A DNA stretch of 64,000 nt from Candidatus Rifleibacteriota bacterium (lineage in GTDB: Bacteria; Muiribacteriota; Ozemobacteria; Ozemobacterales; Ozemobacteraceae). Below are positions 1,290-44,635 of this stretch, one piece after another; positions within the stretch are counted from its first letter, which is position 1; every line of letters begins with the position of its first letter. The stretch is taken from assembly GCA_015232575.1 (NCBI GenBank), contig JADFZL010000003.1, forward strand, positions 128,001 to 192,000, in the 5' to 3' direction. The notes below the pieces were generated by a model, which did not search any database, was not told the DNA's origin, and saw nothing but the letters and a program-made list of their open reading frames with translations. Both the position numbers and the translations under genes were made by a program.

Positions 1290-1299
1290 GAGGTAAAAA

Positions 1300-1713: not shown

Positions 1714-1798
1714 TTAAACAGTTTAGTTTACTTACGAAAGGACGGTGATCAAGAAAAACAGATATTTCGGATTATGAATAATTTACAGGAAAAAATGA

Positions 1799-2203
1799 AT
1801 GATTACACGCCAGCTTATAAACCAGATTTCCGGGCAGGGTATTGTTTCCCGGGGCGAAAACAAAACTAATAAGAGTGCAGTCAATGCTTTAAATGGACAG
1901 ATTTTCGGAAATATACTGCAGAAATCTCTGGTTTCAAATCGCAGCGGGTTAAATATCAGTGCTCATGCAGACAAACGAATCGCAGAACGAAACATGGATT
2001 TTTCCAGTGATGTTCAAAAAGTATTAAATGATGCAGTGAATGAACTTCAGGCAAAGGGGGCAAAAGAGTCGCTGATACTGACAAAAGGTGGTGCTTTTCT
2101 TGTTAATGTTCCATCCAGAACACTTATTACAGCAATTACACCCGATGAGATGCACGACAAAATTATTACTCAGATTGACAGTGTAAGTATTAAAACCCAG
2201 TAA
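1799..2203 (+). CDS. small flagellar operon protein (TIGR02530-like, between flgD and flgE)
   Basis: 134 aa; position between flgD and flgE as in Firmicutes/Thermotogae; motif ISAHADKRIAERNMDFS resembles the H-A-x-x-R-L-x-E-R-N-I segment of that family (recollection, not searched). Confidence 0.4.
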   Translation: MITRQLINQISGQGIVSRGENKTNKSAVNALNGQIFGNILQKSLVSNRSGLNISAHADKRIAERNMDFSSDVQKVLNDAVNELQAKGAKESLILTKGGAFLVNVPSRTLITAITPDEMHDKIITQIDSVSIKTQ

Positions 2204-2597
2204 GAGTGACTGAAAAAAATGTCAGATGGCGATTACTAAAAAGAAATATATGAGAATAAGGCAAACAAAAAGTCCAGTGATTTACAACTGAAAAGTTCTT
2301 TAAAAAGTTATTCCATAAGGAGCAGACTAAGGTTCAATAGTTTCTCAAAGCGGAGGCAGACGATATTAAGGGCCGGACCCATAGAAAAGGGGAAGCCTGG
2401 ATCACCCGAACGACAGACGGTGATCACCTTGAGCAACTTTTTTGAACCAAAAAAGTTACGCTTTCAGGGGGAAACACATGATGTGCTTTTCCCCCTGGGG
2501 GTTTTCCGCTCGACCTGGACAGGTTGAGCCGGCATACGGTTTAAGGGAATAAACCGGAAGCCTGAAGGCGACTATGCCGCAAGGACAGGGTATCAAT

Positions 2598-9516: not shown

Positions 9517-9575
9517 AATTATCTTTTTCCTGTATTTAAATTGAATAAGACTTATTTGAAAAAGCTTATTCGGTA

Positions 9576-10499
9576 TCAATTTTTAAGTAGGTTTTTAATT
9601 CTTTCTGGCGGCCATGCTATTTCATCAACACGCATTATATTAGAAATATTAATAGACAATGGCTTTCCATTAAAGAGAATACCTATTGAATCACTGGCTA
9701 TCTTAACAGGATCCTCTATTGATTTGAACGACTCAGCAACTTTTCCAGAAATTTTGATTTTGTTGTTCGTATGCATTATTGCAGTAATTGATTCATCTTC
9801 AAATGGAATTTTTCCATTGACAAAAAGTGTTTTGTCTTTTATTTGCATTAAATCATTTTCAACCGCACAAACTCTCTCTATATTATAATTCCAAATAACT
9901 ATGCTTCCGGGTTTTAGATCATTTTTTGCAGGATTATGCGTGATTAATATGGTATCGTAAGGTTGTATCAGCGGTGAATAATAATCAGCAAATATTCTCT
10001 CTGCACGACGGTTGCCGGTACCGAGGATTGTCAATATGTGCAGCTGAAAAAAAATTACCGTTACAAGCATTGCCGCAAATATAGGATAACTGATGAGGGA
10101 AAAAGCGCCTGCTTTCTTTAACGGCTGAGTATAGACATCAAAATATATAAAAAAGAGAAAGATTGCTGCGCCAATAAAAATATATTGGCTGAAAGGTGAA
10201 TATATATAATAATACCCATAAAATGCTGTAAATGCTGTAACTACGAGCGCTGACGCACCTTTAACCTTCTGGCCGAGCACAAGGTGTCCAAGTCCGGGGC
10301 ATAGAAAAGATAAAAATAGCACTTGCAGTGCTGTATTTCTTAAAGTATCGGGTATTTTGGATGTGACGGTATTAGAAGATAGTTTTTGAACGAAATTCTG
10401 CCACTTCAGCGAAATATTCGAAATAAAATTCCTATCCTTCTTTCGAGGCGGCTCAAAATCCATTACATCACTGTTTTTAGTGTTGCGAAAACCACACAA
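9576..10499 (-). CDS. membrane protein with C-terminal signal-peptidase-I-like (S26) domain; catalytic Lys position apparently Glu
   Basis: ~5 predicted TM helices, then YSPLIQPYDTILI (cf. SMxPTLxxGD) and NIERVCAVENDLMQIKDKTLFVNGK (cf. YIKRVIGLPGDTVEIKDG.LYINGK) and a C-terminal WPP; TTG start per the ORF track, with an internal ATG 12 codons in. Confidence 0.3.
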   Translation of the reverse strand: MCGFRNTKNSDVMDFEPPRKKDRNFISNISLKWQNFVQKLSSNTVTSKIPDTLRNTALQVLFLSFLCPGLGHLVLGQKVKGASALVVTAFTAFYGYYYIYSPFSQYIFIGAAIFLFFIYFDVYTQPLKKAGAFSLISYPIFAAMLVTVIFFQLHILTILGTGNRRAERIFADYYSPLIQPYDTILITHNPAKNDLKPGSIVIWNYNIERVCAVENDLMQIKDKTLFVNGKIPFEDESITAIMHTNNKIKISGKVAESFKSIEDPVKIASDSIGILFNGKPLSINISNIMRVDEIAWPPERIKNLLKN

Positions 10500-11128: not shown

Positions 11129-11935
11129 TCATTTGACAAAAAGACCCTTGACCCAACTGAAAACTTTTGAAAAAAGACTCTTGTTTATTGCTCTGCAATA
11201 AGCATCATTATATTTTTTATTTACCGGCGCAAGTTTGTTTGCGCGTGAAAAAGATTCTTCGGCGGCAGAATGCAGGTTTAGTCTGTTCTGAATAACACCA
11301 AGCAGATAATATATTTCTGGTAAATCCGATTTTTTTGACAGAGCTTTCTGTAAGACCGGAATTGCTTTCTCGAATAATGGGGTGTTACTGTAACTCTGGG
11401 CAATTTTAAAGAATACCAGCCAGTCGTTTGGCAACAATTCAATTGCTTTCATCATGCAGAATTCGGCATTATTGCCTTTCGTAAGTGCAATAATTTCACC
11501 TCTTGCGATCCATGAAAACCATGAAACATTATCATTTTTCATTGCTCCATCAGAAAAAGCCATGGCATCTTTGAGATTAGCATCTCTTGCTGATGCAAGT
11601 GCCCTTGCTGAAATAATATTCGCGCTTTTTGGAAATAACTTATTTGCTTTTATTGACCAGGTAAGTGCTTCAGGAATTTCTTCAAGATCAAGAAGGCAGA
11701 GAAGCTGTCCAAACCAGGCTTCCTCAATATTTGGATCTATTCCAAGAACTTTTGAATAGTATTTCAAAGCTCTTTCATATTCAAGTTTCCGGTAGTTCTC
11801 ATCTGCAAGACGTAGAACATGCCCGGGATTTGTTAAATCAACTCCGGCCGTTTCAGAATTTCCAGGAAGCTTGTCAAATCCATCTGTTTTCCTGTTTTCC
11901 GGAGAATCAAATTCCAGCCACTTGAATCTGCTCAA
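11129..11935 (-). CDS. TPR-repeat protein
   Basis: multiple TPR-like helical repeats (ALKYYSKVLGIDPNIEEAWFGQ...). Confidence 0.5.
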   Translation of the reverse strand: MSRFKWLEFDSPENRKTDGFDKLPGNSETAGVDLTNPGHVLRLADENYRKLEYERALKYYSKVLGIDPNIEEAWFGQLLCLLDLEEIPEALTWSIKANKLFPKSANIISARALASARDANLKDAMAFSDGAMKNDNVSWFSWIARGEIIALTKGNNAEFCMMKAIELLPNDWLVFFKIAQSYSNTPLFEKAIPVLQKALSKKSDLPEIYYLLGVIQNRLNLHSAAEESFSRANKLAPVNKKYNDAYCRAINKSLFSKVFSWVKGLFVK

Positions 11936-12270: not shown

Positions 12271-12723
12271 CTATTTCCAGCGGCTTACCGTAAGCCGAAT
12301 TGTTTTATCCTCAGAAACTTCTTCTTTTGTAACCGCAAAGCCTTTTCTTTTCATTTCGGCTGTAATTTTCTGGTAAGCATACTGTTGGGCTATTCCATTG
12401 AGAAGATTCTTTCCGAGGAATTCAAGTTCAGCCTCACTTTTATTTACCCCATTGACCCGCATTTGGCAGTCACCTCTGCCCGTCTTTTCAAATACAACTG
12501 AAAAGCCGTTTCCCTGAAAACAAACACTTTCGCCCTCATCAATTGTGTCTGCCAGAGCGTAATTCGAAGACAATGGAATCTCAGCTTCGCATTCCGAATT
12601 GACCTCAGTCATTTGATCACTGCCGACACGACTCATTCCATAGGCTATTCCGGCGACCGTTGCAGCAGCAACAAAGGCGGGCCAGCCGACTATTACCGGC
12701 ACCATAACTACAAATCCTGACAT
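12271..12723 (-). CDS. DUF1257-like (Ycf35-like) protein with N-terminal TM helix
   Basis: C-terminal LLNGIAQQYAYQKITAEMKRKGFAVTKEEVSEDKTIRLTVSRW resembles the conserved DUF1257 C-terminus (recollection); adjacent to the AAA ATPase. Confidence 0.35.
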   Translation of the reverse strand: MSGFVVMVPVIVGWPAFVAAATVAGIAYGMSRVGSDQMTEVNSECEAEIPLSSNYALADTIDEGESVCFQGNGFSVVFEKTGRGDCQMRVNGVNKSEAELEFLGKNLLNGIAQQYAYQKITAEMKRKGFAVTKEEVSEDKTIRLTVSRWK

Positions 12724-12735
12724 AGTATCCTCCTT

Positions 12736-14367
12736 TTATATCTCAAGTGCACGATGAGTGCCAATACGCTGAAAACCGTGCTGTCCAGCTGATGCAGGTC
12801 TTGCTCTTTCCATTGCCCAGTTTCTCAATTCATCAATTTCTTCTTTCATTGTTTTTGAAAGAGGGAATGTTTCTTCGAGAGCGCTTATTATATATTCGGA
12901 ATTCAGTTCATTGCCCGAATTGAAAGCTTCGTAAAGAGCAGACGATATCGCCTCTTCAATTTCTGAGCCAGAAAAGCCCTCAGAAGCCTTTGCAAGGTCT
13001 TCCATATTGAAATTTCCCGGGTTTCTGCTTTTCTTTTTTATATGAATTTCAAAAATCTTTTTTCTTTCTTCAGAATTTGGAAGGTCAACAAAGAAAATGT
13101 CATCAAATCTTCCTTTTCTGAATAACTCAGGTGGCAAATCTTTTATTCTGTTCGAGGTAGCAATTACAAAAACCGGAGAAGTTTTTTCCTGAAGCCAGGT
13201 AATAAATGTTCCAAAAACACGGCTTCCGACGCCACTGTCGCCCTGACCACCTGACTGCATGCCAGAAAAGGCTTTCTCGATTTCATCTATCCAGAGTATT
13301 GCCGGAGCTACTGATTCAGCTGTTTTTATTGCACGTCTTACATTTTCTTCACTTGAACCGACCAGACTTGAAAAAATTCGCCCCATGTCAAGTTTTAGAA
13401 GCGGAACATTCCAGAGACTGCTTATTGCCTTGGCTACAAGACTTTTGCCACATCCCTGTACACCCAGAAGTAATATTCCCTTTGGCGGAGTGCATCCGAA
13501 GGCTCTGGCCTTTTCGGAAAAAGCATGAGATCGCTTCAGCAGCCAGTCTTTAAGGTTTTCAAGACCGCCAACATTGCTTATTGCTTCTGTTGTTGGATAA
13601 TATTCAAGAATGCCGCTTTTTTTGATTATCTGTTCTTTTTCGCTGTGTATGGCCTTTAGATCTTCTCCGTCCAGACGTCGCCTGGAGATCAAAGTTCTGG
13701 CGAGAACATTTTCAATCTCATTTAGAGTCAGACCCTGACAGGCTTTTGCAAGTTTTTCAAGCTCAATTGGATTAAGGTTTATTTTTACCTGAGGATTATT
13801 TTTTACAAGACCTATCATTTCATCAATCTTATTTGATACTTCGGCAGGTGTCGGGAAACCGAATTCAGCTACTGTTATTTCTTTTTCCAGTTCGCAGGGA
13901 ATTTTAAGTATTGGTGAAATAATTATAAGCGTTCTTGGACTATCCCTCAAAAATGAGGCCAATTCACGCATTCTTCGTATAATTGATACGTTGTCAAGAT
14001 ATGGGTGGTAATCCTTAAAAATATAAATGGCATTTTCAAGACTTTCGAATATTCCTTCGATAGCTTCCTGTGGGTCGCGTGTTGATTGCGATATATTCTT
14101 TTTGCTCTGAAAGTCTGTTCCGTAAGGAAGCAATCCACGGGTGATTGACCATGTATAACATTTCTTGTTCTGAGCCCTCGATAATTGGAAAATAAGTTTT
14201 TCGATTCTCTCTTCTTCATGAGAAACAATGTAAAGAATTGGATACTTGGCTCTTATGAGAACATCAATATTTGAATAAAATCCGGAATTCATTACCGGTT
14301 CTTTTTCAGGTAATGGGGTTGGATTTTGATTTGGTTTACTTTTTGTTGGATTGCTTTCTGCGGACAT
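12736..14367 (-). CDS. AAA+ family ATPase, Ycf46-like (single C-terminal AAA domain)
   Basis: Walker A GVQGCGKSL; Walker B ILWIDEIEKAF; sensor/arginine region ATSNRIKDLPPELFRKGRFD; ~280-aa N-terminal domain. Confidence 0.8.
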   Translation of the reverse strand: MSAESNPTKSKPNQNPTPLPEKEPVMNSGFYSNIDVLIRAKYPILYIVSHEEERIEKLIFQLSRAQNKKCYTWSITRGLLPYGTDFQSKKNISQSTRDPQEAIEGIFESLENAIYIFKDYHPYLDNVSIIRRMRELASFLRDSPRTLIIISPILKIPCELEKEITVAEFGFPTPAEVSNKIDEMIGLVKNNPQVKINLNPIELEKLAKACQGLTLNEIENVLARTLISRRRLDGEDLKAIHSEKEQIIKKSGILEYYPTTEAISNVGGLENLKDWLLKRSHAFSEKARAFGCTPPKGILLLGVQGCGKSLVAKAISSLWNVPLLKLDMGRIFSSLVGSSEENVRRAIKTAESVAPAILWIDEIEKAFSGMQSGGQGDSGVGSRVFGTFITWLQEKTSPVFVIATSNRIKDLPPELFRKGRFDDIFFVDLPNSEERKKIFEIHIKKKSRNPGNFNMEDLAKASEGFSGSEIEEAISSALYEAFNSGNELNSEYIISALEETFPLSKTMKEEIDELRNWAMERARPASAGQHGFQRIGTHRALEI

Positions 14368-19872: not shown

Positions 19873-20198
19873 TTTGCAGCTCGGCGTGAATAGCTGATAC
19901 AACTTAATAGGATAATAGTCGATTTATATATGCTCAGTGGCTTCCAGGCGCTTGCGAACAATGCCGAAAGATTCCGAGTCTACGAATTGTCCTGAAATAT
20001 TGAGTTGATACGTCGATTTTATAAAGATTGCTGAAAAAACGCCATCAATATGTCAGATTTTCTTCACTTTTACTTGTTCGAATTTTCCTTTATTCATACT
20101 TAATTTCTTACTGGGATAGGTTTTTGAAGGTAAATTCATACTCTGGCAGAAAAATTGCGAGTATTCTTCTGTATAAAAAAAGTAAAGGAGAATATAGT

Positions 20199-22049
20199 AT
20201 GAATGGTATTTTGAAGTCTTTGTTTGCAGCAGCGATAATGTTTTCTTTTAATTCAACAGTTGATGTTTCAGCAGCTCCAGTTAAAAAAACCGTTGCAATT
20301 GACGGAACTCACATAGTAAACAAGAGAGTTGAAAAACTTGTAAAAAAAGTTAAGCGTCAGACAAAAAAAGAGTATGCCGCTAAGCACAGAGCCCCGGAAC
20401 CTGAAAAAAAGATATACAAACTTGGTGACGAAGAATCTTTCTGGGCAACAAATGTAAAAGAAAATAAACAGTATCAGTTAAAAGCTACACTCAAAGCAAT
20501 TGGTCCAAACAGCTATATTTTTCTGGAAAATGGCAAGTCAGTTTCAGATGCAGACCTGAAAAGAATCAGCGATGATTTTGAAAATAAGGTATATAAAACT
20601 AATGTTAAGTATTTTGGAGCCGAATGGAATCCTGGAATTGACAATGATGTAAGAATGACTCTTCTTCTGCTTGATATTCAGGATAATTTTTCACCGGAAG
20701 GCGATCAGGGTTATGTAGGTGGTTACTTTTTTGCTGGTGATGAATTTCTCCAGTCTGATATTCCAGCTGACGTAGATGTAAAGAGTAATGAACGTGAGAT
20801 GCTCTATCTCGATATTTATCCATCAGATCCAACCAGCGGAGATTATCTTGCAGTAGTTGCTCATGAACATCAGCACATGGTTCACTTTGCACACGATCCG
20901 AATGAATTTACATGGTTGAACGAAGGTTGTTCGATGATATCAATGTATCTGAATGGCTACGGGCATCAATCACAGATTAAAAGTTTCATGGAACAGCCCG
21001 ATGTAAGTCTTACAGCGTGGTCTGATAAAAGTTCAATTGCAAATTATGGTATCAACTATCTGTTCAATTTTTATCTTCTTGAAAGATTCCTCAAAACCGA
21101 TGCATCGAGAGTTGATTTTTATACTAACCATGTAGACAACAAGCTTCAGGGCGTTGATTCGTTTGATGAGAAACTCAAAAAATCTTTTGGAACAGACTTT
21201 CAGAAATTTTTTACAGAGTTCGCAGTAACAAATTTTGTAAACAATCCAAAACTTGGAAATGGTGAATTTTCATATACTGATTCAGCATTAAATAAATTTA
21301 AACTGCCGGTTTGCAAGCATGTAAAGGCTTTTCCTGCAGAGATTACCGAACAGGTATACCTCTGGAGTGCTGATGGAATTAAAGTTGATCTTTCGACAGC
21401 AAAGAGTTCTTTGAAAATAGAATTTGCAGGTTCTTACGCAGCTTTTACAGAAGGAAAGCATATTGCTTATGAAGTAATTGCAGTTTTAACTGACTCCCGC
21501 GATAGAACCACTCCTGAAATGAAAAAAATCACCCTTGCTCCATCTGCAGATAAAAAAATTCAGTCAGGCGCTCTTGATCTGGTTCTGGATGGAAAGTTTG
21601 ATACAATGACTATAGTTGTAAGTGCACAGGCTCCAATGGGAATTCCAGATGCGGCTTATGCAAAGGCTCCAGCGATTCCATACGCGATTGAAATTAAAGA
21701 TGCCGGAACTCAGATTGCTAGAAGCGAAAATTCTGTTGTCAGTGTGTCAGCTCTTGTCAGCGATTACGAAAATGCTGCAGCATCTCTTAACAGCAGCAAT
21801 GAAGAAATTCAGCTTCAAGCTTATAATACTCTTGAAAGTGTGACTTATGAACTCAGTCGCAGTGTAACAGCAGATTGCGAAATTAGAAGCACAAAATCAA
21901 TTGATGAAATTATCGAAGCAGTTGAAAAAGCAGAATCAAAAGAATCTTTGAAGCCACTTGTTAAGAAAATAGTTGATGTCTTAAATAATAAAAATCTTCA
22001 GGATAACCTCAAGATCGAAGACAAAATCCAGACATTGAAATCACTGTAA
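20199..22049 (+). CDS. secreted zinc metallopeptidase (HExxH = HEHQH)
   Basis: signal peptide MNGILKSLFAAAIMFSFNSTVDVSA; AVVAHEHQHMVHF...NEG gluzincin-like motif; start moved to 20199 (GGAG RBS), the ORF track start 20028 being non-secretory. Confidence 0.55.
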   Translation: MNGILKSLFAAAIMFSFNSTVDVSAAPVKKTVAIDGTHIVNKRVEKLVKKVKRQTKKEYAAKHRAPEPEKKIYKLGDEESFWATNVKENKQYQLKATLKAIGPNSYIFLENGKSVSDADLKRISDDFENKVYKTNVKYFGAEWNPGIDNDVRMTLLLLDIQDNFSPEGDQGYVGGYFFAGDEFLQSDIPADVDVKSNEREMLYLDIYPSDPTSGDYLAVVAHEHQHMVHFAHDPNEFTWLNEGCSMISMYLNGYGHQSQIKSFMEQPDVSLTAWSDKSSIANYGINYLFNFYLLERFLKTDASRVDFYTNHVDNKLQGVDSFDEKLKKSFGTDFQKFFTEFAVTNFVNNPKLGNGEFSYTDSALNKFKLPVCKHVKAFPAEITEQVYLWSADGIKVDLSTAKSSLKIEFAGSYAAFTEGKHIAYEVIAVLTDSRDRTTPEMKKITLAPSADKKIQSGALDLVLDGKFDTMTIVVSAQAPMGIPDAAYAKAPAIPYAIEIKDAGTQIARSENSVVSVSALVSDYENAAASLNSSNEEIQLQAYNTLESVTYELSRSVTADCEIRSTKSIDEIIEAVEKAESKESLKPLVKKIVDVLNNKNLQDNLKIEDKIQTLKSL

Positions 22050-22058
22050 ATAATTAAT

Positions 22059-22105
22059 TCTCTCAATAAAAAAACCGCCGATAGGCGGTTTTTTTATTGA
22101 GAGAA
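22059..22105. terminator. bidirectional rho-independent terminator (long palindrome TTCTCTCAATAAAAAAACCGCCG ATAG CGGCGGTTTTTTTATTGAGAGAA)
   Basis: GC stem flanked by A7/T7 runs immediately after the peptidase stop. Confidence 0.85.
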
Positions 22106-22278: not shown

Positions 22279-23445
22279 TTATTTCTGTTTTTGTATTATT
22301 GATGACCGAAAGCTTGAAATATACTTTTGTGCCCGAATTGCTTCGTTCGAGCCTGGAAATTGTTTAATAACTTCACGGAGGTAATGAATAGCGTCGGTGG
22401 CAGCATTTGAGAGACCAGAAATCTGTTTTGCTCTTGAATAATATATTTCAGCGATAGCGAAGAGGGTTTCGGGGCTTTTGGCAATATTATTTGCCTTAAA
22501 GAGATATTTGGTCGCCAGACCGAGATTTCCAGTTTCTTTTGCTTCAAGGCCTTTTGAAATTAATTCATTTACATTCGTAGGAATTTCAATCTTTGTTTCT
22601 GAGGAATTTTTGACTATATCTGAATTTTCATTGCCTGCTTTTTTTATATTCTGAAACGTTTTTATCTGAGGTTTTTCAATAGTAGTTTTTCCGTCTACCA
22701 AAGTCAATTTAAGCGAGTTTTCGAGATTCTTTTTCCATTCTTCAATTTTTTTTATGCGAGCTCGTGTAAGAGCTTTCTTTTCTTCTGAGATATCAGAGGA
22801 AACATATTTGTTGAGTCCAATTAAGGCCTTTGAAAAGTCACCCATAAGAGCAAGATAAACAGAGTGATAGAAAAGAGAATCAGGTTGATTGTTTGACATA
22901 GCTACAGAATAATAATTCAGACCTGTTTTTATTATTCCCTGATCAATTCCGTCCAGGAAATCAGGGTCCAGGTCTGCACATTCAATAAATTTCGGGAAGG
23001 CTATTTCAAATTTTCCAAGAGATTTGTCTTTAAGGACTTCAAGAAACAGTTCTCTTGCCTTTTTCTGGTCTGCATTTAAATAAGCTGATTTATTGCGCTT
23101 TTCGAGAGCTATTTTTACTTCGAGCAGTTCAATTTTGAATGAAAGTGATGGATAATTAGGAAGAATATTTTTGACTTTTTTAAATGTGTCAAGAGATTCA
23201 TCAAGTCTGTTGATTTTTTCGAGAAGTGTTCCCATGGCATATAGAATTTTGGGGTCATTGGGAAATTTTGTCAACCCTTCAGAAAGAGTGTTAATGGCAT
23301 CTTGCAGGTTGTTTTTTGCTTCGTCACGTGCTTTAGTCAGAAAAGTGTCAGGACCTGTTCCTGGTTTCGCTGCATAAGTAAAGTTTAAATCGGAGAACTG
23401 AGAAAAAAGAATACAGCCAGCAAGAAAAATAAAGCGTTTTTTCAT
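22279..23445 (-). CDS. TPR-like lipoprotein (last gene of the pseudopilin operon)
   Basis: signal peptide with LAGC lipobox; TPR-like helical repeats. Confidence 0.5.
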   Translation of the reverse strand: MKKRFIFLAGCILFSQFSDLNFTYAAKPGTGPDTFLTKARDEAKNNLQDAINTLSEGLTKFPNDPKILYAMGTLLEKINRLDESLDTFKKVKNILPNYPSLSFKIELLEVKIALEKRNKSAYLNADQKKARELFLEVLKDKSLGKFEIAFPKFIECADLDPDFLDGIDQGIIKTGLNYYSVAMSNNQPDSLFYHSVYLALMGDFSKALIGLNKYVSSDISEEKKALTRARIKKIEEWKKNLENSLKLTLVDGKTTIEKPQIKTFQNIKKAGNENSDIVKNSSETKIEIPTNVNELISKGLEAKETGNLGLATKYLFKANNIAKSPETLFAIAEIYYSRAKQISGLSNAATDAIHYLREVIKQFPGSNEAIRAQKYISSFRSSIIQKQK

Positions 23446-23467
23446 AGGAATGCTCCAGAACTCTATT

Positions 23468-24052
23468 TTATATCTTTCTTTTTATTTCGACTTGTTTTTC
23501 AATGTATTCGATTCGATCCTGATTGCTGTCGCGTTCGTCAAAGGCGTATCCCATGACTTTAATTGTAGCTGTTTCTCTTGTTAAGCCAAGATCTGTATCA
23601 GTATTGGTATAAAAAGATGAAATTGAGAAACTGCTGACCTCGTATCTCCAGGGGTGGGGGCCTGACGTTAGTTCCTTGAAACTCCAGGGCATTGATGCGG
23701 AATTAAGATCTGAACGAAACATTTCAAGAGCTTGCGGATAAAAATTAGTTGGTGTTGTATCAGTTGCAATCAGACTATTTCCACGTGGGTTAAAAAATGG
23801 GCATACACCTCTGTAGAGTGATGATGCAGCATAGGCATCACGCGGAAGAATGCGAAGCTTCAGCAATGCATGCTGAATTCCTCCCATAGCCATGTAATAT
23901 GCTTTTTTCTGAGTGTGTGAAGCCAGTGACTGTTTTTTCACTCTTGATCTGAAAGTCGAAAGAGTAAAAAGAAATGTCATAAAAATCACGCAGAAAAGGA
24001 GTGTTAATGGAACAGCCATTCCATTTTTCGAAGAAGAATTTCGCTCTGTCAT
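23468..24052 (-). CDS. hypothetical membrane-anchored protein (possible degenerate minor pseudopilin)
   Basis: N-terminal hydrophobic helix AVPLTLLFCVIFMTFLFTL; start overlaps the upstream pseudopilin stop (ATGA). Confidence 0.35.
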   Translation of the reverse strand: MTERNSSSKNGMAVPLTLLFCVIFMTFLFTLSTFRSRVKKQSLASHTQKKAYYMAMGGIQHALLKLRILPRDAYAASSLYRGVCPFFNPRGNSLIATDTTPTNFYPQALEMFRSDLNSASMPWSFKELTSGPHPWRYEVSSFSISSFYTNTDTDLGLTRETATIKVMGYAFDERDSNQDRIEYIEKQVEIKRKI

Positions 24053-24603
24053 AATCGCGCTTTCCTCGTATAAAGATAGATAGGGTGGCGATCATAGTCT
24101 TTCACATCTGCTCCGTGAGGTTTCCAGCGAACGGTCAGTTTGATATCCTTCAGGTCGACATCAGAAGGAGATGATAGTTTTTCTTTATCGAGTTGGTATA
24201 TCGATCTGCTTGTGTCAGCGACAATTATAGCGGATAGAGTGCTTATTTGCTCAATTCCGTTGAGGCATGGTGGATGGTAATCAATTCTGGGTACAACAAA
24301 ATTATACGCTGATGATGCCTGACTGACTTCATTCACCTCCACTTTATAAAGAATATCTGTAAATTTAAGCGTAATAGTGACATCTGTCGGGCTTGCAATA
24401 TTGGAATCAGTAAAATCCATTTTCATGAGAATTGTGTCCATAATGTCGCAGGCAAATTGCATTGCTTCTGATTCACTTCTTTCATATTTTGTACTTTTTG
24501 ATGATGTGGTAAGCATATCAACAATTGGAAGGAGCGCTGCACCCATAATTAAAACTGCAATCATAATTTCAACAAGTGTTACGGCAGATGTTGCTTTTAT
24601 CAC
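24049..24603 (-). CDS. prepilin-type N-terminal cleavage/methylation domain protein (pseudopilin) with Ala at -1
   Basis: MIKATSA|VTLVEIMIAVLIMGAALL: Glu at +5 and a hydrophobic alpha-1N helix, but Ala rather than Gly before the cleavage site. Confidence 0.6.
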   Translation of the reverse strand: MIKATSAVTLVEIMIAVLIMGAALLPIVDMLTTSSKSTKYERSESEAMQFACDIMDTILMKMDFTDSNIASPTDVTITLKFTDILYKVEVNEVSQASSAYNFVVPRIDYHPPCLNGIEQISTLSAIIVADTSRSIYQLDKEKLSSPSDVDLKDIKLTVRWKPHGADVKDYDRHPIYLYTRKARL

Positions 24604-25286
24604 AGGTGACCTCCCTGCTGGAATTCAACTTCGAAAGGAGCTTCTATTTTTTCGATTACCCTTGTTTCGGGATATTTGGGACTCTGGGCTTCAATTTTAA
24701 GTTCAACGAAATTCCTCATATTTACAGCCAGAAGAGTTTGATCAGTAACAGGTAATATCCGCAAATCAATTTTAAATGGATCTTCGCATATAACCTGGGA
24801 TACTTCTCCGATTAATGAAGGATCTCCAGATACAAATGATCTTCTGTAGACAAGCTTCTTATTTTTTACTTCAAGATAACCTTCCATAATCAGAGGATCT
24901 TTTGCCGGCTCGCCAATAATATCTTTTGAACCGGGAAGGCACATGAAAAATCTCAACAAAGGGGTATTGTTGCTGCAATTTGTAAGAGAAAAAGGATTTC
25001 CTGCATGATAAAGCTTTTTAGGTCTGTCATCTCCGAATGGTTCTGTTCCGCGCTGGGAAACAATTGAAGGAATGGAAACCTTATTGAGTTCCTGACGCAA
25101 AAAATCAAGTCCGATTCTCATTTTATTTGTTGTTTGTGCAACCCACATTCCCCGTTCATTTACCCTTCGGAAGTGCATAAAAAGATCATATAACCCGGAA
25201 AGAAGCATAACAAGAACAAGAGCCGCAATAATTATCTCTACGAGTGTAAAAGCATCTTTTGAAGAAAAAGTTTTTTTACTCTTCAA
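24600..25286 (-). CDS. prepilin-type N-terminal cleavage/methylation domain protein (pseudopilin) with Ala at -1
   Basis: MKSKKTFSSKDA|FTLVEIIIAALVLVMLLSGL: FTLVE with Glu +5; Ala at -1. Confidence 0.65.
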   Translation of the reverse strand: MKSKKTFSSKDAFTLVEIIIAALVLVMLLSGLYDLFMHFRRVNERGMWVAQTTNKMRIGLDFLRQELNKVSIPSIVSQRGTEPFGDDRPKKLYHAGNPFSLTNCSNNTPLLRFFMCLPGSKDIIGEPAKDPLIMEGYLEVKNKKLVYRRSFVSGDPSLIGEVSQVICEDPFKIDLRILPVTDQTLLAVNMRNFVELKIEAQSPKYPETRVIEKIEAPFEVEFQQGGHL

Positions 25287-25289
25287 TTG

Positions 25290-26327
25290 CTAGAACCCTT
25301 TCTCTTTCATATAATCTTCCATCGTTTTGCCTTCTTTTTTGAGTTTTTCATTCAATTTTTCCTGACCAGGCAACTCGCCACGTTTTTGTTTTTCGAGAAG
25401 ATTTTTCTTTATTTCTTCGAGAACTTCTTCACGTTCTTCCTGAGTCGTGGCATTTTCGAGTTTGTCTCTTGCCTCTGTTATCATTGAATCAATCTTTTCT
25501 TTTTCTTCGGTGCCAAGTTTTTCGGTCTGGCTTCCGATGAGTTCTTCAAGATCTTTCTGTGTAAATTCACCAGCTTCAATTGTATCAAGGAGTTTATCTT
25601 TGGAAGATCTATTGAGATAATCGAATTTATGTGTGATAATGAACTCTTCGTTTGAATCAGCAATGTAATCAAGAGCTCGCATGTAAACTTCGGCTGCTTT
25701 GTCTTTCAGGTTAGAGCTTTCATAAAGGAAAGCAAGTTGTAACATAGGTTCTTTGTTCCAGTCTTTTCCCTGGAGCGAACTTTGCAGAGCTTCTTCATAA
25801 ATCTTCATCGCCTGTTTCAGTTCTTCATAGTTTTTATATCTGAGTGTCGGATTCAGGCGAAATGCCTGGAACAAAGTAACCGCCAGTTTTAATCTCTGCT
25901 TTGAATCTTGATTTTTGAGATAAGTGTTAAACTTTTCCTCACCTTTTTGATTAAACTTTTCCTGTAAATTTTTTACCTTCTTTTTATAGTCTTTTAATTT
26001 CTGGTTGTATTCCTCACCCTTTTCAGTGGAAGGTCTTGATCTGGCTACTATTTCAAAGTTTTCTTTAGCCTGAAGATAGTCTTCGAGTCTGGTAAGAATC
26101 TGTGCAAATACATATCTGAAAACGGCATTGTCAGGCTCTTTTTTGATGGCCTCAAGCATAAGTTTGCTTGCCTTTTCAAGATCATTTGCCTTGAAGGCTT
26201 CTTCTGCCTGTTTCATAAGTTCAGATGCTTCCTGATTTGTCCCCTTAGCTGAAACAGGCAGAAAACTACCTGAAAGTAGAATTACAGCAGACAGAAAAAT
26301 AATTACAATGCAGCTTTTCGATTTCAT
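25290..26327 (-). CDS. secreted TPR-like/coiled-coil protein
   Basis: signal peptide; TPR-like N-half; K/E-rich coiled-coil C-half. Confidence 0.5.
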   Translation of the reverse strand: MKSKSCIVIIFLSAVILLSGSFLPVSAKGTNQEASELMKQAEEAFKANDLEKASKLMLEAIKKEPDNAVFRYVFAQILTRLEDYLQAKENFEIVARSRPSTEKGEEYNQKLKDYKKKVKNLQEKFNQKGEEKFNTYLKNQDSKQRLKLAVTLFQAFRLNPTLRYKNYEELKQAMKIYEEALQSSLQGKDWNKEPMLQLAFLYESSNLKDKAAEVYMRALDYIADSNEEFIITHKFDYLNRSSKDKLLDTIEAGEFTQKDLEELIGSQTEKLGTEEKEKIDSMITEARDKLENATTQEEREEVLEEIKKNLLEKQKRGELPGQEKLNEKLKKEGKTMEDYMKEKGF

Positions 26328-26332
26328 AGGCT

Positions 26333-29300
26333 TTACCTTTTATGACGTTGATCTTCGAGAGTTCTGATAATTTCCATGTTTGGACTCCATATTCTGAAAT
26401 GCACCTTCAAAGTTCTGTTATTTGGAATTGTTACTTTATCTGAAGCTTCGAGTTTAATTGAACATTCTTCCCCGTCATCGTTAGGATTTGGGAAAGTATA
26501 TTCTCTCCAGTAAAATTTATCAACTGGAACAACTCCGCCAGAAGGATAGGTTGGAGTATCCATCAAAGTAATCATTGATGTGACTTTTCCGTTATCATCT
26601 TTAAATTTCGAGTCTGAGGTTAGTTTTACGGAAACTCCGCATGGGAAACTCGAGTCGGTATTTTTGAATGCGTTGATGTTGTCCCATGTCCAATAGCGGA
26701 AAACCAGCGGAATTTTTGAATCATGGTGAAATGCTGTTTTGTTTGCGGCAACGGTATCACCGCCATTCCAGTAATTCGGGGGTTTTATTTCTGAAATTGT
26801 CAAATTAGTTTCTGGAACGGCAAAAAGCCAGGGTCTGAAGAATCCCTTTTCCACATTATCCTGAGTTGGAAAATAACCTGTTTCCTGATCGGCAGTTAAT
26901 AGATAATTAAAGAGCCACTGGCTATCAGAATATTGAGTATCCTGATCTGTATAAGACTTCATTCCAATGTTTGAATCAGTAGCAATGACAACAGAAGCTG
27001 TTCTGGCCTGGGTAAAGGCTTCCCAATATTTAGGCGACTGGCCTTCACCAGCAAACAGGTTTCCATACAAAGTTGCTTTGTGAATCTTTGTATTCAGTAT
27101 TTCAAGAGCGATATTAGGCTTTCCTTCATCGACAAGTGAACTCAGAAACATAAACTCACCCCAGTTTCCTGCAGGTGAAGTGTAAGTAAGTCTTCCGCCT
27201 TTAACTGGCAGGGTACTCGTCGGAGCATTTAGGTTTCCTGTTGGCTGTGTCCACGAGCTGACAAAGTTGTCTGGAAGGTCAACTCCTGAAAAAGTCAGAG
27301 AGGCTATTGCAAGAACATTATCAGCACTTGGAGTCTGGTTACCTGAACCGTCAGTTACAGTTGGAAACATTTTGATCGCTTTTGCGCTCCATGGGTAGAA
27401 GTGTATTCCATCAGAAAAGACCGGTGTTCCATCGGTTGGCAAGGTTGCCGGAGCTGTAAAATTTCCACGGGCGGCATCGCCGAATGGAAGTATATAATTA
27501 TCTGATGTTTGTGCGAAATTGTATCCCATTGGCTCATTTAAATCGGAAAGAGGGACTTCAAATTCAATTGAGGAATGTCCTTCCCATGTTTCGTCGGCTG
27601 CGGAATATAAATCTTTTAGACTAGAAACCGGTGCTCCATTCCTGTCAAGAATTTTTGGCACGGCTTTCGAAGGATCTACTGAAATATTTTTCCAGACAAA
27701 TCGCTGCGCCGGAACAACGGTAACACCGAGTAAAGAAGGAAAAGGAGAATTTTCATTGCTGCTGCCTTTTAAACCAACATAAACAGGTACACATACGTTA
27801 TAAGTGAAAGTTGCTCCGATTAATGGTGTTTCACCAGGTGGCCAAAAACCTTCATCAGAAGGGATTAGATATCTTGCAAATTCACTATTTTTGTTATTGC
27901 CACTTTTTCGTTCCCCTGCCTCAAATATTTCAAGAGTTTCAAGAGATTTAGTTCCCATAATATCACTATTATATTTCAATTTGTTTGAATCATTTGTCGA
28001 GAGCAAAGGGTTATTGTCTAGGACTTTGAATTTGATCTTATCTGCTGTGGAACTCTGGGCAAGGGTCTTACCGGTTGCCCCTTTGATTTCGCCGGTTGTT
28101 GCGACCCATGAAAAGGAAGCGGGTGGTTGGGTATCTACTACAGTTACATAAACAATGGTATTGCGTCCGGGAGAAGAATACCCAATTGCAGGATATGAAC
28201 CACGGACAAAAATTCCGCCGACGTCATAGTCGTTTTCATCAAGTGACCATTCATAATAGTCATCCAGGTTTGTTGTTGCCGATGAAATCTGTGTCAATTC
28301 TGGTTTTAGTTTTCTTGTTCCTTCAATCCAGACCCACACCCAGTCAGAGTAAGACTCCAGGTTTGTCTGGCAATCTACTTTCCAATAGTCGGGGGCTGTA
28401 GGAGTATTGAAGTTTACACTTACAAAGGTAGATGCTTTATTAATCTGTGTCGAAGAAGCAGGCGGAGTAATAAAAAAATTTGTATTGTAGACACCAGAAC
28501 TATACCAAGTTGGATTTCCCTGGCAAGCGATGTAGCAGGATGCTAAAATGATCTTCTCTTTTTCTGCAATTGGCCCTTTTGAATAGTTAGGGTTTGAACC
28601 AATATCTTTAAATGCGCGAGTGACAGGGGCGGCCCCTATATCTTTTTTTGTGCCAATTGCCAGAGGTGTTAAAATCTTTTCTTTAAGCCAGGCCTCCAGT
28701 GCGCTCTTGTGACTTGGTTTTGATGCGGTAAAAGAAGTAGTCTCTGGTACATAGGAGAGAACATCTCCACCAAAATCAGGGGTGGCAGGGGTACTTAGTA
28801 TTTTATCAAATACCGCTTCAACGTTTAATCCTGGAATTTTAGCATTGATCTGAGGGATGATAAAAGCCTTATTTTGTTGCCACGAATAGCCAAGCATATT
28901 ACGCGCAGTTTTTTCGTCATATTCCAATGACCAGTTTGCATTTACAGCCGGACCTGTGCCCGATTCGTCTACGACGACCATGCAGCTTGGACTCTGCTCT
29001 GCATTAAGCGGAAATATTCTAAAAGTTGGTTCCCCTGGAGGACCGGATCCAGGATCGTAATCACCACGGCCATTTCCTGTTATTGTCCAGGTTGGTTTAG
29101 GAGCATCAGCAAAGGTAGTTGCGTACTGGTTTTTTGCCTCACCTTCTTCCCAAAAAATAGGTCGAGGAGGATCAATAGGGATAGCGCTTTGAATAAGACC
29201 TTCAAAAACTACCTTTGTACCGCATGGTACAACAAGGAATTTCATGTCGTTCTCATCCCATGCCTTGAAGAATTTCCCGCCAGCAAAGGGCGTATTTTCA

Positions 29301-29467
29301 AGATCCGCTGGAAGTGTTGTTTTTTCTGAACTTCCAATAGGTCCTGATCCATTTGGATAACTTATTACACCAGTGATAGGATCCTGGGGACCCTTACCAT
29401 CACATGCAAAAAGGTGGGAACTGGCAACCAGCAAAAAAGCTATAAGCAGATGAAAAAAATATTTCAT
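26333..29467 (-). CDS. large (1044 aa) lipoprotein of unknown function, first gene of the pseudopilin operon
   Basis: MKYFFHLLIAFLLVASSHLFAC signal peptide + lipobox (start moved to the internal Met with a GGAGG RBS); G/P/N/T-rich beta-type sequence; no recognisable catalytic motif. Confidence 0.5.
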   Translation of the reverse strand: MKYFFHLLIAFLLVASSHLFACDGKGPQDPITGVISYPNGSGPIGSSEKTTLPADLENTPFAGGKFFKAWDENDMKFLVVPCGTKVVFEGLIQSAIPIDPPRPIFWEEGEAKNQYATTFADAPKPTWTITGNGRGDYDPGSGPPGEPTFRIFPLNAEQSPSCMVVVDESGTGPAVNANWSLEYDEKTARNMLGYSWQQNKAFIIPQINAKIPGLNVEAVFDKILSTPATPDFGGDVLSYVPETTSFTASKPSHKSALEAWLKEKILTPLAIGTKKDIGAAPVTRAFKDIGSNPNYSKGPIAEKEKIILASCYIACQGNPTWYSSGVYNTNFFITPPASSTQINKASTFVSVNFNTPTAPDYWKVDCQTNLESYSDWVWVWIEGTRKLKPELTQISSATTNLDDYYEWSLDENDYDVGGIFVRGSYPAIGYSSPGRNTIVYVTVVDTQPPASFSWVATTGEIKGATGKTLAQSSTADKIKFKVLDNNPLLSTNDSNKLKYNSDIMGTKSLETLEIFEAGERKSGNNKNSEFARYLIPSDEGFWPPGETPLIGATFTYNVCVPVYVGLKGSSNENSPFPSLLGVTVVPAQRFVWKNISVDPSKAVPKILDRNGAPVSSLKDLYSAADETWEGHSSIEFEVPLSDLNEPMGYNFAQTSDNYILPFGDAARGNFTAPATLPTDGTPVFSDGIHFYPWSAKAIKMFPTVTDGSGNQTPSADNVLAIASLTFSGVDLPDNFVSSWTQPTGNLNAPTSTLPVKGGRLTYTSPAGNWGEFMFLSSLVDEGKPNIALEILNTKIHKATLYGNLFAGEGQSPKYWEAFTQARTASVVIATDSNIGMKSYTDQDTQYSDSQWLFNYLLTADQETGYFPTQDNVEKGFFRPWLFAVPETNLTISEIKPPNYWNGGDTVAANKTAFHHDSKIPLVFRYWTWDNINAFKNTDSSFPCGVSVKLTSDSKFKDDNGKVTSMITLMDTPTYPSGGVVPVDKFYWREYTFPNPNDDGEECSIKLEASDKVTIPNNRTLKVHFRIWSPNMEIIRTLEDQRHKR

Positions 29468-29663
29468 ATCTCCCTCCCCAATTTCTTTTTTCACTTTAAA
29501 ACATCGTTTCAAAAACACTTGTAAGATGATATTTCAGTCACTATTAAAAAGGATCTTTTCATTCTTCTACAAAAAACACTTTTCTATTATCAGTATATCA
29601 CTTTCTTCAAAAAATGAGTATACGAAATCTCCTAATGATTTGTAAAGAAAGTCTGAAGTGAAA

Positions 29664-41830: not shown

Positions 41831-44635
41831 ATGATTGAAGAAATCTTAATAAGTTTACAGGATAAACTAAGATCTGGGGATTATCTTGATAATGAGACTG
41901 CAGTTGATAAGCTTAGTTCTCTGTTGCAGTCTCAGAATGCTGAAAAACAGAGAAAAATTATTGCCACTCTTTTGCCTTCAGCGCTTTCATCAAAATTTGA
42001 AAATATTCAGAAGAAGACGATTCAGGTCGTTTTTAATTATCCATCGATATTGAAAGATGTTTTGCCTTCATTGAGGTTGTCTTCTGATTCAACTGTTCGA
42101 TTCTGGTCACATTTCATGCTCATTGAGCTTGGGTTTCTTTCTCAGGATGAATTGATTGATATTGTAAATAGTCGTGAAAGCGATGAAATTCGAAAACTTG
42201 TACTTGAATCTCTCGCAAAAAAGCCTGATAAAACAATCATTTTAACTGTTCTGGAAAAGATCAGTGATCCGAGCTGGGTTATCAGAAAACAATCAAAAAA
42301 AATACTCATTCAGCAGGGCGATTCAATTTATCAGATAATTCAGGAATATTTTCTTTCATGTCCCAGCAGACAGAAATATGAATGTATAAAGATAATTCCT
42401 CTGATACTCAAGGATAAAGCAGTTCTTCTATTTAAAAAAATGCTTGAATCTGATAAGAATGGTCAGGTGAAACCATATATCTGTGCCGGGTTGGGAGAAA
42501 TCCGTAATGAAGAAACTCAAAACATTTTGCTTGGGCTGCTTGAAGATCCTTCACTCCTTGTAAGAGAAGAGGCTGTTAAAGCACTGTCAAACTGGGGAAG
42601 AGAGATTGTAAGACCTCTTTTTTCAATTATGTCAACCGCGCCCCAGGATCTGATGGCAACGACGATGTCTTTGATGGGAAGAGTTCTTCAGCTGGATGTT
42701 GTTAAGGAATTGAAAGATTTCTTCGGACATCTTAACCAGGAAATGAAATTTTTTATGCTTACTGCTATTGCTGAAGTAAGAAATCAGGCAATTGTTCATG
42801 AACTCCTGGATTTTCTCAGAGATGAATCTGTTTTCATTCAGGAATATTCGATTAAAATTCTTGTCAGGCTTGGTGTTCATGCTATTGATCCGCTGCTTGC
42901 CCAGATAGATCAGGAAGACGAAAAACTTGTAATTCCTGTTCTTAAAGTTGTTGGGGAAATAGGTTCTAAAGATGCTTTACGACCCCTTCTTTTTCTGATA
43001 GATAACAGCAAGAATCCACTTGTTAGAACATGTGCAGTAGAGGCGATTTCAAAACTTCAGAAATTTGAGCTTATTGCCGGGCTGCTATTGTTAAAACTTG
43101 ATGACAAAGACTTGACAATTCGGCACACAATCATTGAAAACCTTTCAAAACATGAAAGAAGTGCTTTTATCAAAGATCTTCTTGTTTGTACAATGGATAG
43201 AAATACTGACGTTGCACTTGGGTCAAGAGAAATTCTCAGACGCCGTGATTATCCGGGCGTTCCGGGTTTTCTTATTCTTTATGAAGGTGCGACTGATTTT
43301 GAAAAAGATAAGATTGTTTCCATGGTGTCAAAATTATCAGACGATCAGATTGATTCTGTCCTGCGAAAGGAAAAGATCCAGATAGACAGCTTTAATCCTG
43401 AAAACGTTGAAACACGCGTGCTGAGTAGAAAATATAATAAAGAGAATATTACCGATATCAAGGAACTTTTGTATTATCTGCATGAAGAAGGCGGATCAGA
43501 TCTACATCTCAGCATCGGTTTGCCACCAAGTATAAGAATTCATGGTGAACTGGTAAGAACAACTTTTGAAAATATTACTCCTGAAAAGAGCCGGTATCTG
43601 ATTTTTTCTCTGCTCAATGAAGCGCAGAAGCTCGCTTTTTCTGAACGCATGGAAATCGATTTTTCATTTGAAATACTTGACTGTGCAAGATTCAGAGCCA
43701 ATATTTTTACGCAAAAAAATGGTGTTGCCGGTGTATTTAGAATTATTCCCAATACAATTCCAAATTTTGAAGCTCTCTCACTTGATCGTGAAATTATGGC
43801 CAAAGTCTGCAATCACAGGTCTGGTCTGATATTGGTTACCGGATCAACTGGTTCAGGAAAATCTACAACTTTGGCCGCAATGATTGATCACATCAATCGT
43901 ACAAGATATGATCACATAATTACAATTGAAGATCCTATCGAATTTGTCCATCCTCACAAACGTTGCGTTGTTTCTCAGAGAGAACTTGGCAGTCATACTC
44001 ATAATTTCTCAAATGCTCTGCGCAGTGCATTGCGTGAAGATCCCGACGTTATTCTCGTCGGGGAAATGCGTGACCTTGAAACAATGCATCTGGCAATATC
44101 AGCAGCAGAAACAGGACATCTTGTTTTTTCAACTCTTCATACTATTAATGCTTACGAGTCTATTAACCGCGTTCTTGGCTCGTTTCCGGGGGATCAGCAG
44201 GAAACTGTAAGAATGCAACTCGCCGGAACTCTCAGGGCGATTCTTTCCCAGAGACTTATTCCAGCTTATCTTTCTGCTGGACGCGTTCTTGCTTATGAAG
44301 TACTGATTGCATCAACACCAGTAAGACGCTGTATAAAGGAAGCAAAGATTGATCAGATTATTTCTGTCATGCAGACTGGTCGGGCAGATGGCATGATAAC
44401 CATGGATGCCTGTCTTGAAGACCTGGTCATTCGCAAGAGAATTACTTTCGACGATGGTCTGAAATATGCCGAAGACAAGAAAACCTTTGAAGTAAAGGTA
44501 CAGGAAAGACTTGGATTGCGAGCGAAGAGTAAAAGCGATTCACCGCCAGCCGCACAGGCAGCACAAAACCAGCCACCGGGCGTTGCAAAGCCTGTAAAGT
44601 CAGAATCGCCACAGGTAAAGGGCAAAGGTCACTGA
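41831..44635 (+). CDS. fusion protein: N-terminal ~530-aa HEAT/PBS-lyase-type repeat domain + C-terminal PilT-family ATPase + P/A/Q-rich tail
   Basis: HEAT-like repeats (VREEAVKALSNWG; VRTCAVEAISKL; IRHTIIENLSK); then GGSDLHLSIGLPP, GSTGSGKSTT, DVILVGEMRD, TLHT, as in PilT. Confidence 0.75.
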   Translation: MIEEILISLQDKLRSGDYLDNETAVDKLSSLLQSQNAEKQRKIIATLLPSALSSKFENIQKKTIQVVFNYPSILKDVLPSLRLSSDSTVRFWSHFMLIELGFLSQDELIDIVNSRESDEIRKLVLESLAKKPDKTIILTVLEKISDPSWVIRKQSKKILIQQGDSIYQIIQEYFLSCPSRQKYECIKIIPLILKDKAVLLFKKMLESDKNGQVKPYICAGLGEIRNEETQNILLGLLEDPSLLVREEAVKALSNWGREIVRPLFSIMSTAPQDLMATTMSLMGRVLQLDVVKELKDFFGHLNQEMKFFMLTAIAEVRNQAIVHELLDFLRDESVFIQEYSIKILVRLGVHAIDPLLAQIDQEDEKLVIPVLKVVGEIGSKDALRPLLFLIDNSKNPLVRTCAVEAISKLQKFELIAGLLLLKLDDKDLTIRHTIIENLSKHERSAFIKDLLVCTMDRNTDVALGSREILRRRDYPGVPGFLILYEGATDFEKDKIVSMVSKLSDDQIDSVLRKEKIQIDSFNPENVETRVLSRKYNKENITDIKELLYYLHEEGGSDLHLSIGLPPSIRIHGELVRTTFENITPEKSRYLIFSLLNEAQKLAFSERMEIDFSFEILDCARFRANIFTQKNGVAGVFRIIPNTIPNFEALSLDREIMAKVCNHRSGLILVTGSTGSGKSTTLAAMIDHINRTRYDHIITIEDPIEFVHPHKRCVVSQRELGSHTHNFSNALRSALREDPDVILVGEMRDLETMHLAISAAETGHLVFSTLHTINAYESINRVLGSFPGDQQETVRMQLAGTLRAILSQRLIPAYLSAGRVLAYEVLIASTPVRRCIKEAKIDQIISVMQTGRADGMITMDACLEDLVIRKRITFDDGLKYAEDKKTFEVKVQERLGLRAKSKSDSPPAAQAAQNQPPGVAKPVKSESPQVKGKGH

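Follow-up and report, generated by a model that had tools for sequence, protein, structure and literature searches.

A conserved module of three pilin-like proteins, two TPR proteins, and a giant lipoprotein in the candidate phylum Riflebacteria

The stretch of DNA analyzed here, hereafter the window, comprises 64,000 nucleotides of contig JADFZL010000003.1 (positions 128,001 to 192,000) from a Candidatus Rifleibacteriota bacterium. On its minus strand, positions 22279–29467 are occupied by six tightly packed genes, and all six open reading frames (ORFs) reported in the initial annotation are present at these coordinates. In the direction of transcription, they encode a lipoprotein of 1044 amino acids (aa) with an ATG start (BIG, 26333–29467), a secreted tetratricopeptide repeat (TPR) protein (TPR345, 25290–26327), two prepilin-type minor pilins (J228, 24600–25286, with a TTG start, and I184, 24049–24603, with a GTG start), a third pilin-like protein (K194, 23468–24052), and a second secreted TPR protein (TPR388, 22279–23445). 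The intergenic spacings from BIG to TPR388 are 5, 3, −4, −4, and 22 nt, and the genes form a single, translationally coupled operon. ATGA couplings had been proposed for both overlaps; this applies to the I184/K194 junction, whereas J228 and I184 overlap by GTGA. Shine–Dalgarno-like sequences precede the ATG of BIG at 29467 (GGGGAGGGAG) and the start of I184 (GGGAGG). BIG is 100% identical to the product of locus tag HQM10_05720 from a Candidatus Riflebacteria metagenome-assembled genome (MAG), and the current annotation of all six genes is limited to "hypothetical protein".

J228 and I184 start with short basic leaders of 12 and 7 aa, respectively, followed by Glu5 and a hydrophobic alpha1N segment; the cleavage sites read KDA↓FTLVE and TSA↓VTLVE. 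Related loci were collected for comparison (21 loci, reaching 10 kb to each side of the module, 380 kb in all). The window copies score just under the threshold of the N_methyl model (PF07963; 18.8 bits for J228 and 14.8 bits for I184 vs. 21.2), and all 16 tested J/I family members from the related loci match it (best E = 2.8e-8), which bears out the earlier claim of prepilin-type proteins. With their class III signal peptides, J228 and I184 are, as far as sequence can tell, type IV pilin-like proteins. Matches to NCBIfam models were sub-threshold and confined to the N-terminal 60–70 residues. For J228, these were GspJ (E = 1.9e-4) and ComGF (E = 4.6e-4), and the GspJ model PRK08808 gave 20.6 bits (cut-off 295) over residues 11–69 only. 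For I184, they comprised PilV (TIGR02523; E = 2.5e-7, 31.3 bits vs. a cut-off of 52.2), ComGE, XpsI, and, weakly, ComGC. The N-terminal helix of J228 is therefore most like those of GspJ and ComGF, and that of I184 like those of PilV, GspI, and ComGE. An alignment of the J and I profiles by hhalign was likewise confined to this helix, and searches of both profiles against Protein Data Bank (PDB) sequences returned generic N-terminal helix matches only. None of the Pfam families T2SSI, T2SSJ, and T2SSK was matched by the window proteins at E ≤ 1 or by 16 J/I and 120 K members at E ≤ 0.1, and no curated family was matched by the globular domain of any J or I member.

Both cleavage sites carry Ala instead of Gly at position −1. 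An upstream in-frame start yielding a Gly leader was ruled out for both proteins, because a stop codon lies two codons 5' of the J228 start and the I184 ORF contains no earlier start codon. Another start would leave the −1 residue unaltered anyway, and the two sites reported in the initial annotation are real. The interpretation attached to them, that Ala(−1) is a sign of a divergent system, had to be given up, as Gly predominates in the J, I, and K families. Over all loci, 23 of 26 distinct J/I sequences have Gly at this position and three have Ala, namely J228, I184, and the J protein of the closest relative; orthologues of J228 have Gly. The K family shows the same alternation (Gly in 101 and Ala in nine of 110 sequences). 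Furthermore, the signal peptides of pneumococcal Com pilins naturally end in Ala and are recognized by their prepilin peptidase (PMC8727766), so that Ala(−1) is no marker of a new system. We therefore rejected Ala(−1) as the hallmark of a new peptidase specificity; it is an incidental, local substitution in the source lineage.

The third pilin-like protein, K194, had been described as degenerate, which does not apply: its leader (SKNG↓MAVPLTLLF) is well conserved and has Gly(−1), and it lacks Glu5. The K family comprises 137 proteins, and every named member comes from Riflebacteria or Ozemobacteraceae. Its conserved leader reads [RK][KR]-G↓[IML]-A-[IVL]-P-x-V-L-x-F, with an always hydrophobic residue at position +5. 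The predicted fold of K194 is pilin-like, with an N-terminal alpha-helix and an antiparallel beta-sheet in the model. Comparison of this model with individual structures gave values of 6.0 for PilA of S. sanguinis (7o5y_B), 5.8 for EpsI (2ret_A), 5.6 for the Thermus competence pilin TT_C0855 (6qvf_A), 5.3 for GspI (3ci0_I), 5.1 for XcpV (5bw0_B), 5.0 for GspK (3ci0_K), and 4.4 for XcpX (5vtm_X). A Foldseek search with K194 gave no pilin match, and the K family matched no pilin hidden Markov model (HMM), including PilX_N (PF14341), in 120 members. The K profile found nothing among PDB sequences, and hhalign revealed no relationship between K and I (probability 0.3%). A single subunit without Glu5 in each set is a recognized mark of the capping minor pilin, as with PilX (PMC7541494; bioRxiv 10.64898/2026.02.12.705559) and ComGG (PMC8727766). 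By analogy, K194 would take the position of GspK, PilX, and ComGG, with a presumed capping role.

BIG carries the lipobox LFAC, the cysteine of which (Cys22) is invariant in 10 orthologues and also found in most paralogues. Two terminal motifs stand out. Directly after the lipid-bearing cysteine, BIG contains C-x(2-4)-P-x-[DE]-P, and its extreme C-terminus reads E-I-I-R-T-L-E-D-x-R-x-R. In the family as a whole, P-x-[DE]-P lies at most eight residues after the lipobox cysteine, and the C-terminus takes the form [IL][RQ][TS]LE[ED]xRxR. Both motifs are kept in orthologues and in paralogues of 745–1291 aa at about 20% identity, and they may represent sorting or docking signals. A word-indexed search of 5.8 billion proteins retrieved 10 relatives of BIG, and with a profile, searched exhaustively against 1.84 billion representative proteins, 28 were found. 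About 11 of the latter are orthologues; the remainder (745–1291 aa) have a central stretch and the last ~130 residues in common. BIG had been introduced as a giant lipoprotein without recognizable domains, and this description holds: no Pfam or NCBIfam model matched at E ≤ 1, the BIG profile found no relative among PDB sequences, and ten paralogues had no Pfam domain either. Self-BLAST revealed no internal repeats. An AlphaFold model built from a 10-sequence alignment reached a mean pLDDT (predicted local distance difference test) of 38, and Foldseek returned noise only. The stretches FRVxDNNP and FRYWxWDNIN may resemble the ends of cadherin-like domains. The PilY1 beta-propeller (Neisseria_PilC/PilY1) and vWA models of Pfam did not match. 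PilY1 itself carries a signal peptide of type I and is a soluble periplasmic protein (PMC7541494). Given its lipoprotein signal and the missing PilY1 domain, we rejected BIG as a member of the PilY1 family. The proposal of a PilY1-like adhesin or a secreted substrate thus survives in part, since linkage to the three pilin-like genes fits a partner or a cargo, whereas homology to PilY1 does not hold.

The two TPR proteins differ in their conservation. TPR345 (Pfam TPR_19/TPR_14) has a charged, coiled-coil-like C-terminal half and no lipobox. It is the best conserved component, with 55–81% identity between genomes. TPR388 (Pfam TPR_19/TPR_2/TPR_6) was taken for a lipoprotein in the initial annotation, which is doubtful: its Cys11 follows a hydrophobic stretch of only six residues and is absent from homologues. 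Cleavage by signal peptidase I (TYA↓AKP) is the likelier alternative. Scores against the pilotin model PilF/PilW (TIGR02521) were 28.3 bits for TPR345 and 16.8 bits for TPR388 (cut-off 154), and the Tgl model (NF033762) gave 15.6 bits (cut-off 225). With sub-cut-off scores and a cysteine that is not conserved, TPR388 was rejected as a lipoprotein pilotin.

A scan of one genome per species detected BIG at 13 loci, all of them in MAGs of Riflebacteria and Ozemobacteraceae. In tblastn searches with the six window proteins, the J-I-K trio adjoined BIG in 12 of 13 informative loci. The six genes are linked across the candidate phylum Riflebacteria, and their co-occurrence in related genomes was thereby confirmed. 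One carrier is the complete Riflebacteria chromosome OZ223236.1 (5.2 Mb), with the module at 2.52–2.54 Mb. The order and direction of the genes differ between loci; most often, BIG and J-I-K-TPR388 converge, and TPR345 is located upstream of J or of BIG. More than 12 independent MAGs contain orthologues with 33–81% identity at the protein level, which indicates real genes under selection. Furthermore, we identified a second and more widespread module type, TPR337-TPR459-J216-I188-K178-BIG869, with 20–33% identity to the first. In locus L019, this second type occupies the chromosomal slot (PfkB ... DnaG/RpoD) that holds the first type in locus L003. In locus L001 (10001–23108), both types stand back to back, i.e., BIG1035 and TPR387-K196-I186-J233 next to J216-I176-K183-BIG882 and TPR475, and the two tandem modules share a single TPR345-type gene. 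TPR388 is the module-specific TPR partner, with an own copy in each paralogous module (TPR387 and TPR475 in L001). As both module types have the same architecture, each trio keeps its own BIG and its own TPR388-type protein. We take the joint divergence of J, I, K, and BIG as the chief reason to assume that the four proteins act together.

Two ATPases of the PilT family are encoded in the window, both well above the TIGR01420 cut-off of 319 bits. The first is a canonical PilT of 373 aa (8458–9579; 466 bits), which neither pilB nor pilC adjoins. The second is a HEAT::PilT/PilU fusion of 934 aa (41831–44635, plus strand; 462 bits) with an N-terminal extension of about 540 residues containing HEAT repeats (HEAT_2, E = 9e-29), an unusual architecture for a retraction ATPase. 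With two such enzymes above the cut-off, the genome very probably encodes a retractile type IVa pilus machine.

Taken together, we propose that the operon is a phylum-specific core minor-pilin module in which BIG acts as a non-homologous functional analogue of PilY1, PilC, and ComZ, and we put the probability of this reading at roughly 0.55. The filament in question would most likely be a type IVa pilus. J228, I184, and K194 would be inserted into the inner membrane via their class III signal peptides and trimmed by a peptidase encoded elsewhere. They could then form a small complex with the Glu5-less K194 on top, as known for GspK, PilX, and ComGG; this complex would prime the polymerization of major pilins on a machine encoded elsewhere and end up at the tip of the fibre. 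BIG would be the non-pilin partner of the trio, serving as a tip plug or adhesin in the manner of PilY1, PilC, or ComZ. The periplasmic TPR345 and TPR388 might act as assembly or chaperone factors. Judging from conservation patterns and from the general tendency of TPR domains to bind terminal peptides, the shared TPR345 may recognize the conserved IRTLEExRxR peptide at the C-terminus of BIG, TPR388 being specific to its module.

Much of this logic has precedents in type IVa minor-pilin/PilY1 clusters, e.g., fimU-pilVWXY1E of Pseudomonas aeruginosa and the clusters of Myxococcus xanthus (PMC7541494). Shared features include an operon of prepilin genes with one Glu5-less product, one non-pilin protein of about 1000 aa with a signal peptide, a location apart from the core machine genes, and PilT-family ATPases in the genome. 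M. xanthus has three such clusters, each with its own large protein (PMC7541494), and one large protein beside the minor pilins is also the rule in both module types described here. In contrast, the module has three pilin-like genes instead of four or five, two TPR proteins are integral to it, none of its products reaches the PilV, PilW, or PilX thresholds, and BIG differs from PilY1 in domain content and signal peptide. A second parallel is offered by PilA1-PilA3/ComZ of Thermus thermophilus and the cyanobacterial PilX with its beta-solenoid, in which a bulky, lineage-specific tip element replaces PilY1 and alternative core minor-pilin sets occur in one genome (bioRxiv 10.64898/2026.02.12.705559). 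In those cases, the bulky domain forms part of a pilin (ComZ, PilX), whereas BIG is a separate lipoprotein without a pilin N-terminus. Our search of the literature retrieved nothing of relevance on pili of Riflebacteria or Ozemobacter. The uncharacterized Verru_Chthon cassette A–D (TIGR02596–TIGR02600) is lineage-restricted, occurs in multiple copies, and combines prepilin-type proteins with one very large protein. According to the TIGRFAMs descriptions, it is thus alike in composition and copy number; however, it belongs to different phyla, homology between the large proteins was not detected, and the sole match was a weak one of the I184 N-terminal helix to TIGR02599 (E = 0.061, 12.6 bits vs. 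a cut-off of 256.5).

Several observations weigh against the proposed module. Only three pilin-like genes are present, while type IVa core sets usually have four, and the globular parts of J, I, and K fall outside the curated minor-pilin families. Since BIG lacks a PilY1 domain and its model is of low confidence (pLDDT 38), it is linkage alone that points to a role at the tip. An extra BIG copy in Ca. Ozemobacter sibiricus (locus L008) has a TPR neighbour and no trio. In addition, filament machinery is missing from the surroundings. Among the scanned window ORFs (at least 150 aa), we found no PilB, PilC, PilD, PilM–Q, secretin, or major pilin, so the earlier remark that neither pilB, pilC, a secretin, nor a prepilin peptidase is encoded nearby stands, with the two PilT-family ATPases as the machinery present. 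Likewise, the 10 kb around the module contain neither a major pilin nor an assembly ATPase, a platform protein, a secretin, or a peptidase in any of the 21 related loci. T2SSE-family ATPases are absent from the same 380 kb, and no other class III motifs occur in the window. The idea of a divergent, undescribed fibre system is consequently to be narrowed: the families are undescribed, but the system is not self-contained, as no machine genes lie within 10 kb. Judged by its sequences, the cluster is a pilin-type module of hitherto undescribed families that follows the known logic of minor pilins with a large partner.

As for other explanations, the trio could form the tip of a short pseudopilus like that of the type II secretion system (T2SS), with J228, I184, and K194 as equivalents of GspJ, GspI, and GspK. 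BIG would then be its dedicated cargo that passes a secretin and becomes lipid-anchored on the surface, and the TPR proteins would be cargo chaperones or pilotins. BIG is indeed a conserved lipoprotein, similar in size to the Klebsiella pullulanase PulA, a surface lipoprotein, and either its motif after the lipid-bearing cysteine or its C-terminal peptide could be a sorting signal. Minor pseudopilins of known T2SS loci are encoded inside the gsp operon. Here, no gsp operon genes (GspC–G, GspL–M) were found in the window or within 10 kb of the module in the related loci examined; GspC, D, E, F, L, and M are all missing nearby, as is a convincing GspG. As in the GspI-GspJ-GspK tip (PDB 3CI0, 5VTM) with PulA, a trio with one Glu5-less member adjoins a conserved lipoprotein of about 1000 aa, and PilY1 has been called "an analog of T2SS substrates" (PMC7541494). 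However, T2SSI, T2SSJ, and T2SSK matches are lacking, K194 (194 aa) lacks the large alpha-domain of GspK, and the PilT-family retraction ATPases of the window belong to pili and not to a T2SS. BIG also lacks a recognizable enzyme domain, and T2SS cargoes are not known to co-diverge one-to-one with paralogous pseudopilin sets, whereas each trio here has its own BIG. On balance, we consider a T2SS-like tip unlikely.

A related proposal, which we rate as quite unlikely, departs further from known systems and assumes a hitherto undescribed device, driven by a pseudopilus and made up of the six genes, or of the four core genes J-I-K-BIG with the TPR pair, which would export a single dedicated giant lipoprotein and display it on the cell surface; the fold of BIG would have no known relative. 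P-x-[DE]-P and IRTLEExRxR would then be sorting or docking signals read by the trio and the TPR proteins.

A Com-type pilus for DNA uptake, with BIG as a ComZ-like DNA-binding tip protein, is improbable. Weak NCBIfam matches connect J with ComGF and I with ComGE and ComGC, but they cover the generic N-terminal helix only and lie far under the cut-offs. K lacks Glu5 like ComGG, which is essential in Streptococcus pneumoniae and nucleates the minor-pilin complex (PMC8727766), and Ala(−1) is the norm in the pneumococcal ComGD–ComGG pilins (PMC8727766), whereas Riflebacteria as a rule have Gly(−1) and only exceptionally Ala. Cyanobacteria provide a precedent for two alternative minor-pilin sets serving two filament types (bioRxiv 10.64898/2026.02.12.705559). 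Unlike the module described here, Com pili occur in monoderm hosts, contain much smaller pilins (86–137 aa), and have neither a large partner nor TPR proteins. Furthermore, comEA, comEC, and dprA do not adjoin the module in the related loci examined, and BIG is unlike ComZ or any PDB chain.

Lastly, the prepilin-like N-termini might be mere inner-membrane anchors of a static envelope complex that tethers or sorts the large lipoprotein together with the TPR proteins, which would agree with the lack of linked filament machinery at any locus, with the lack of a pilin HMM or Foldseek pilin match for K194, and with TPR proteins and lipoproteins being typical parts of envelope assembly, but is hardly probable given the PilT-family ATPases in the genome and the class III leader, Gly/Ala(−1), and Glu5 in two of three proteins, with one member lacking it, kept across about 150 sequences, a conserved pattern that argues for cleavage by a peptidase and for helix–helix assembly of the kind found in true filaments.

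The targets that a type IV filament adheres to, senses, or imports are determined by its minor-pilin set and the large partners at the tip. To our knowledge, descriptions of such sets are nearly confined to Proteobacteria, Firmicutes, Thermus, and cyanobacteria. Here, an uncultivated phylum from groundwater, sludge, gut, and magnetotactic enrichments has a conserved three-pilin set with globular domains outside curated families, its partner being an orphan lipoprotein of about 1000 aa instead of PilY1. If BIG were the tip protein, it would represent a new, lipidated class of pilus tip element and raise the issue of how a lipoprotein rides a fibre; if it were a cargo, a dedicated pseudopilin set would be linked to a single lipoprotein. 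Either way, the two co-diverged module types provide a natural specificity experiment.

Regarding the flanks of the operon, a consensus scan alone pointed to a promoter-like site (TTTACA-18-TATACT; 29617–29646, minus strand) in the 196-nt gap upstream of BIG. Downstream of TPR388, a hairpin with a 20-bp palindrome and T/A runs on both sides (22058–22105) resembles a bidirectional intrinsic terminator and is a candidate terminator for the operon and the convergent gene alike. This convergent gene (20028–22049, plus strand) encodes a secreted HExxH protein of 617–673 aa with the motif VVAHEHQHMVH and a weak match to the MXAN_6640 family of putative metalloproteases (40 bits vs. a cut-off of 140). 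It was not found adjoining the module in other genomes in the synteny comparison. In L008 (4690–22990), giant proteins of a secreted or surface type, 1109 and 2893 aa long, flank the trio-less BIG copy.

Regarding other genes of the window, the canonical PilT lies in a minus-strand region (5937–10499), with a metallo-beta-lactamase-fold protein and an NtrC/PilR-like sigma-54 response regulator on one side and, on the other, a protein of 307 aa that is only weakly similar to signal peptidase I (E = 7.8e-5). A 187-aa protein (59975–60538, plus strand) begins directly at a hydrophobic helix (MMDLFVRILITIVLFF...), with no class III leader before it. It matches T2SSG marginally over residues 34–70 (21.2 bits vs. 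a cut-off of 21) and has no NCBIfam match; the protein could be GspG-like and leaderless, or the match may be due to chance. This gene and that of the HEAT::PilT fusion, which the initial annotation had combined with the operon in one putative system, are located at a distance of 12–30 kb from it, whereas the related loci extend to 10 kb. A 268-aa TPR protein (11129–11935, minus strand) has MamA as its best NCBIfam match but is a non-member (47 bits vs. a cut-off of 200), and magnetosome genes did not turn up in the window. Studies of magnetotactic bacteria appear to be the origin of the source MAG and its relatives (nDJH bins). At 12271–14367 (minus strand), a DUF1257 protein adjoins a 543-aa AAA+ ATPase. 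Flagellar genes occupy positions 9–5432 (plus strand); their products are a hook-length protein resembling FliK and a FlgE hook protein of unusual length (952 aa), in which a large insert separates domains D1 and D2.

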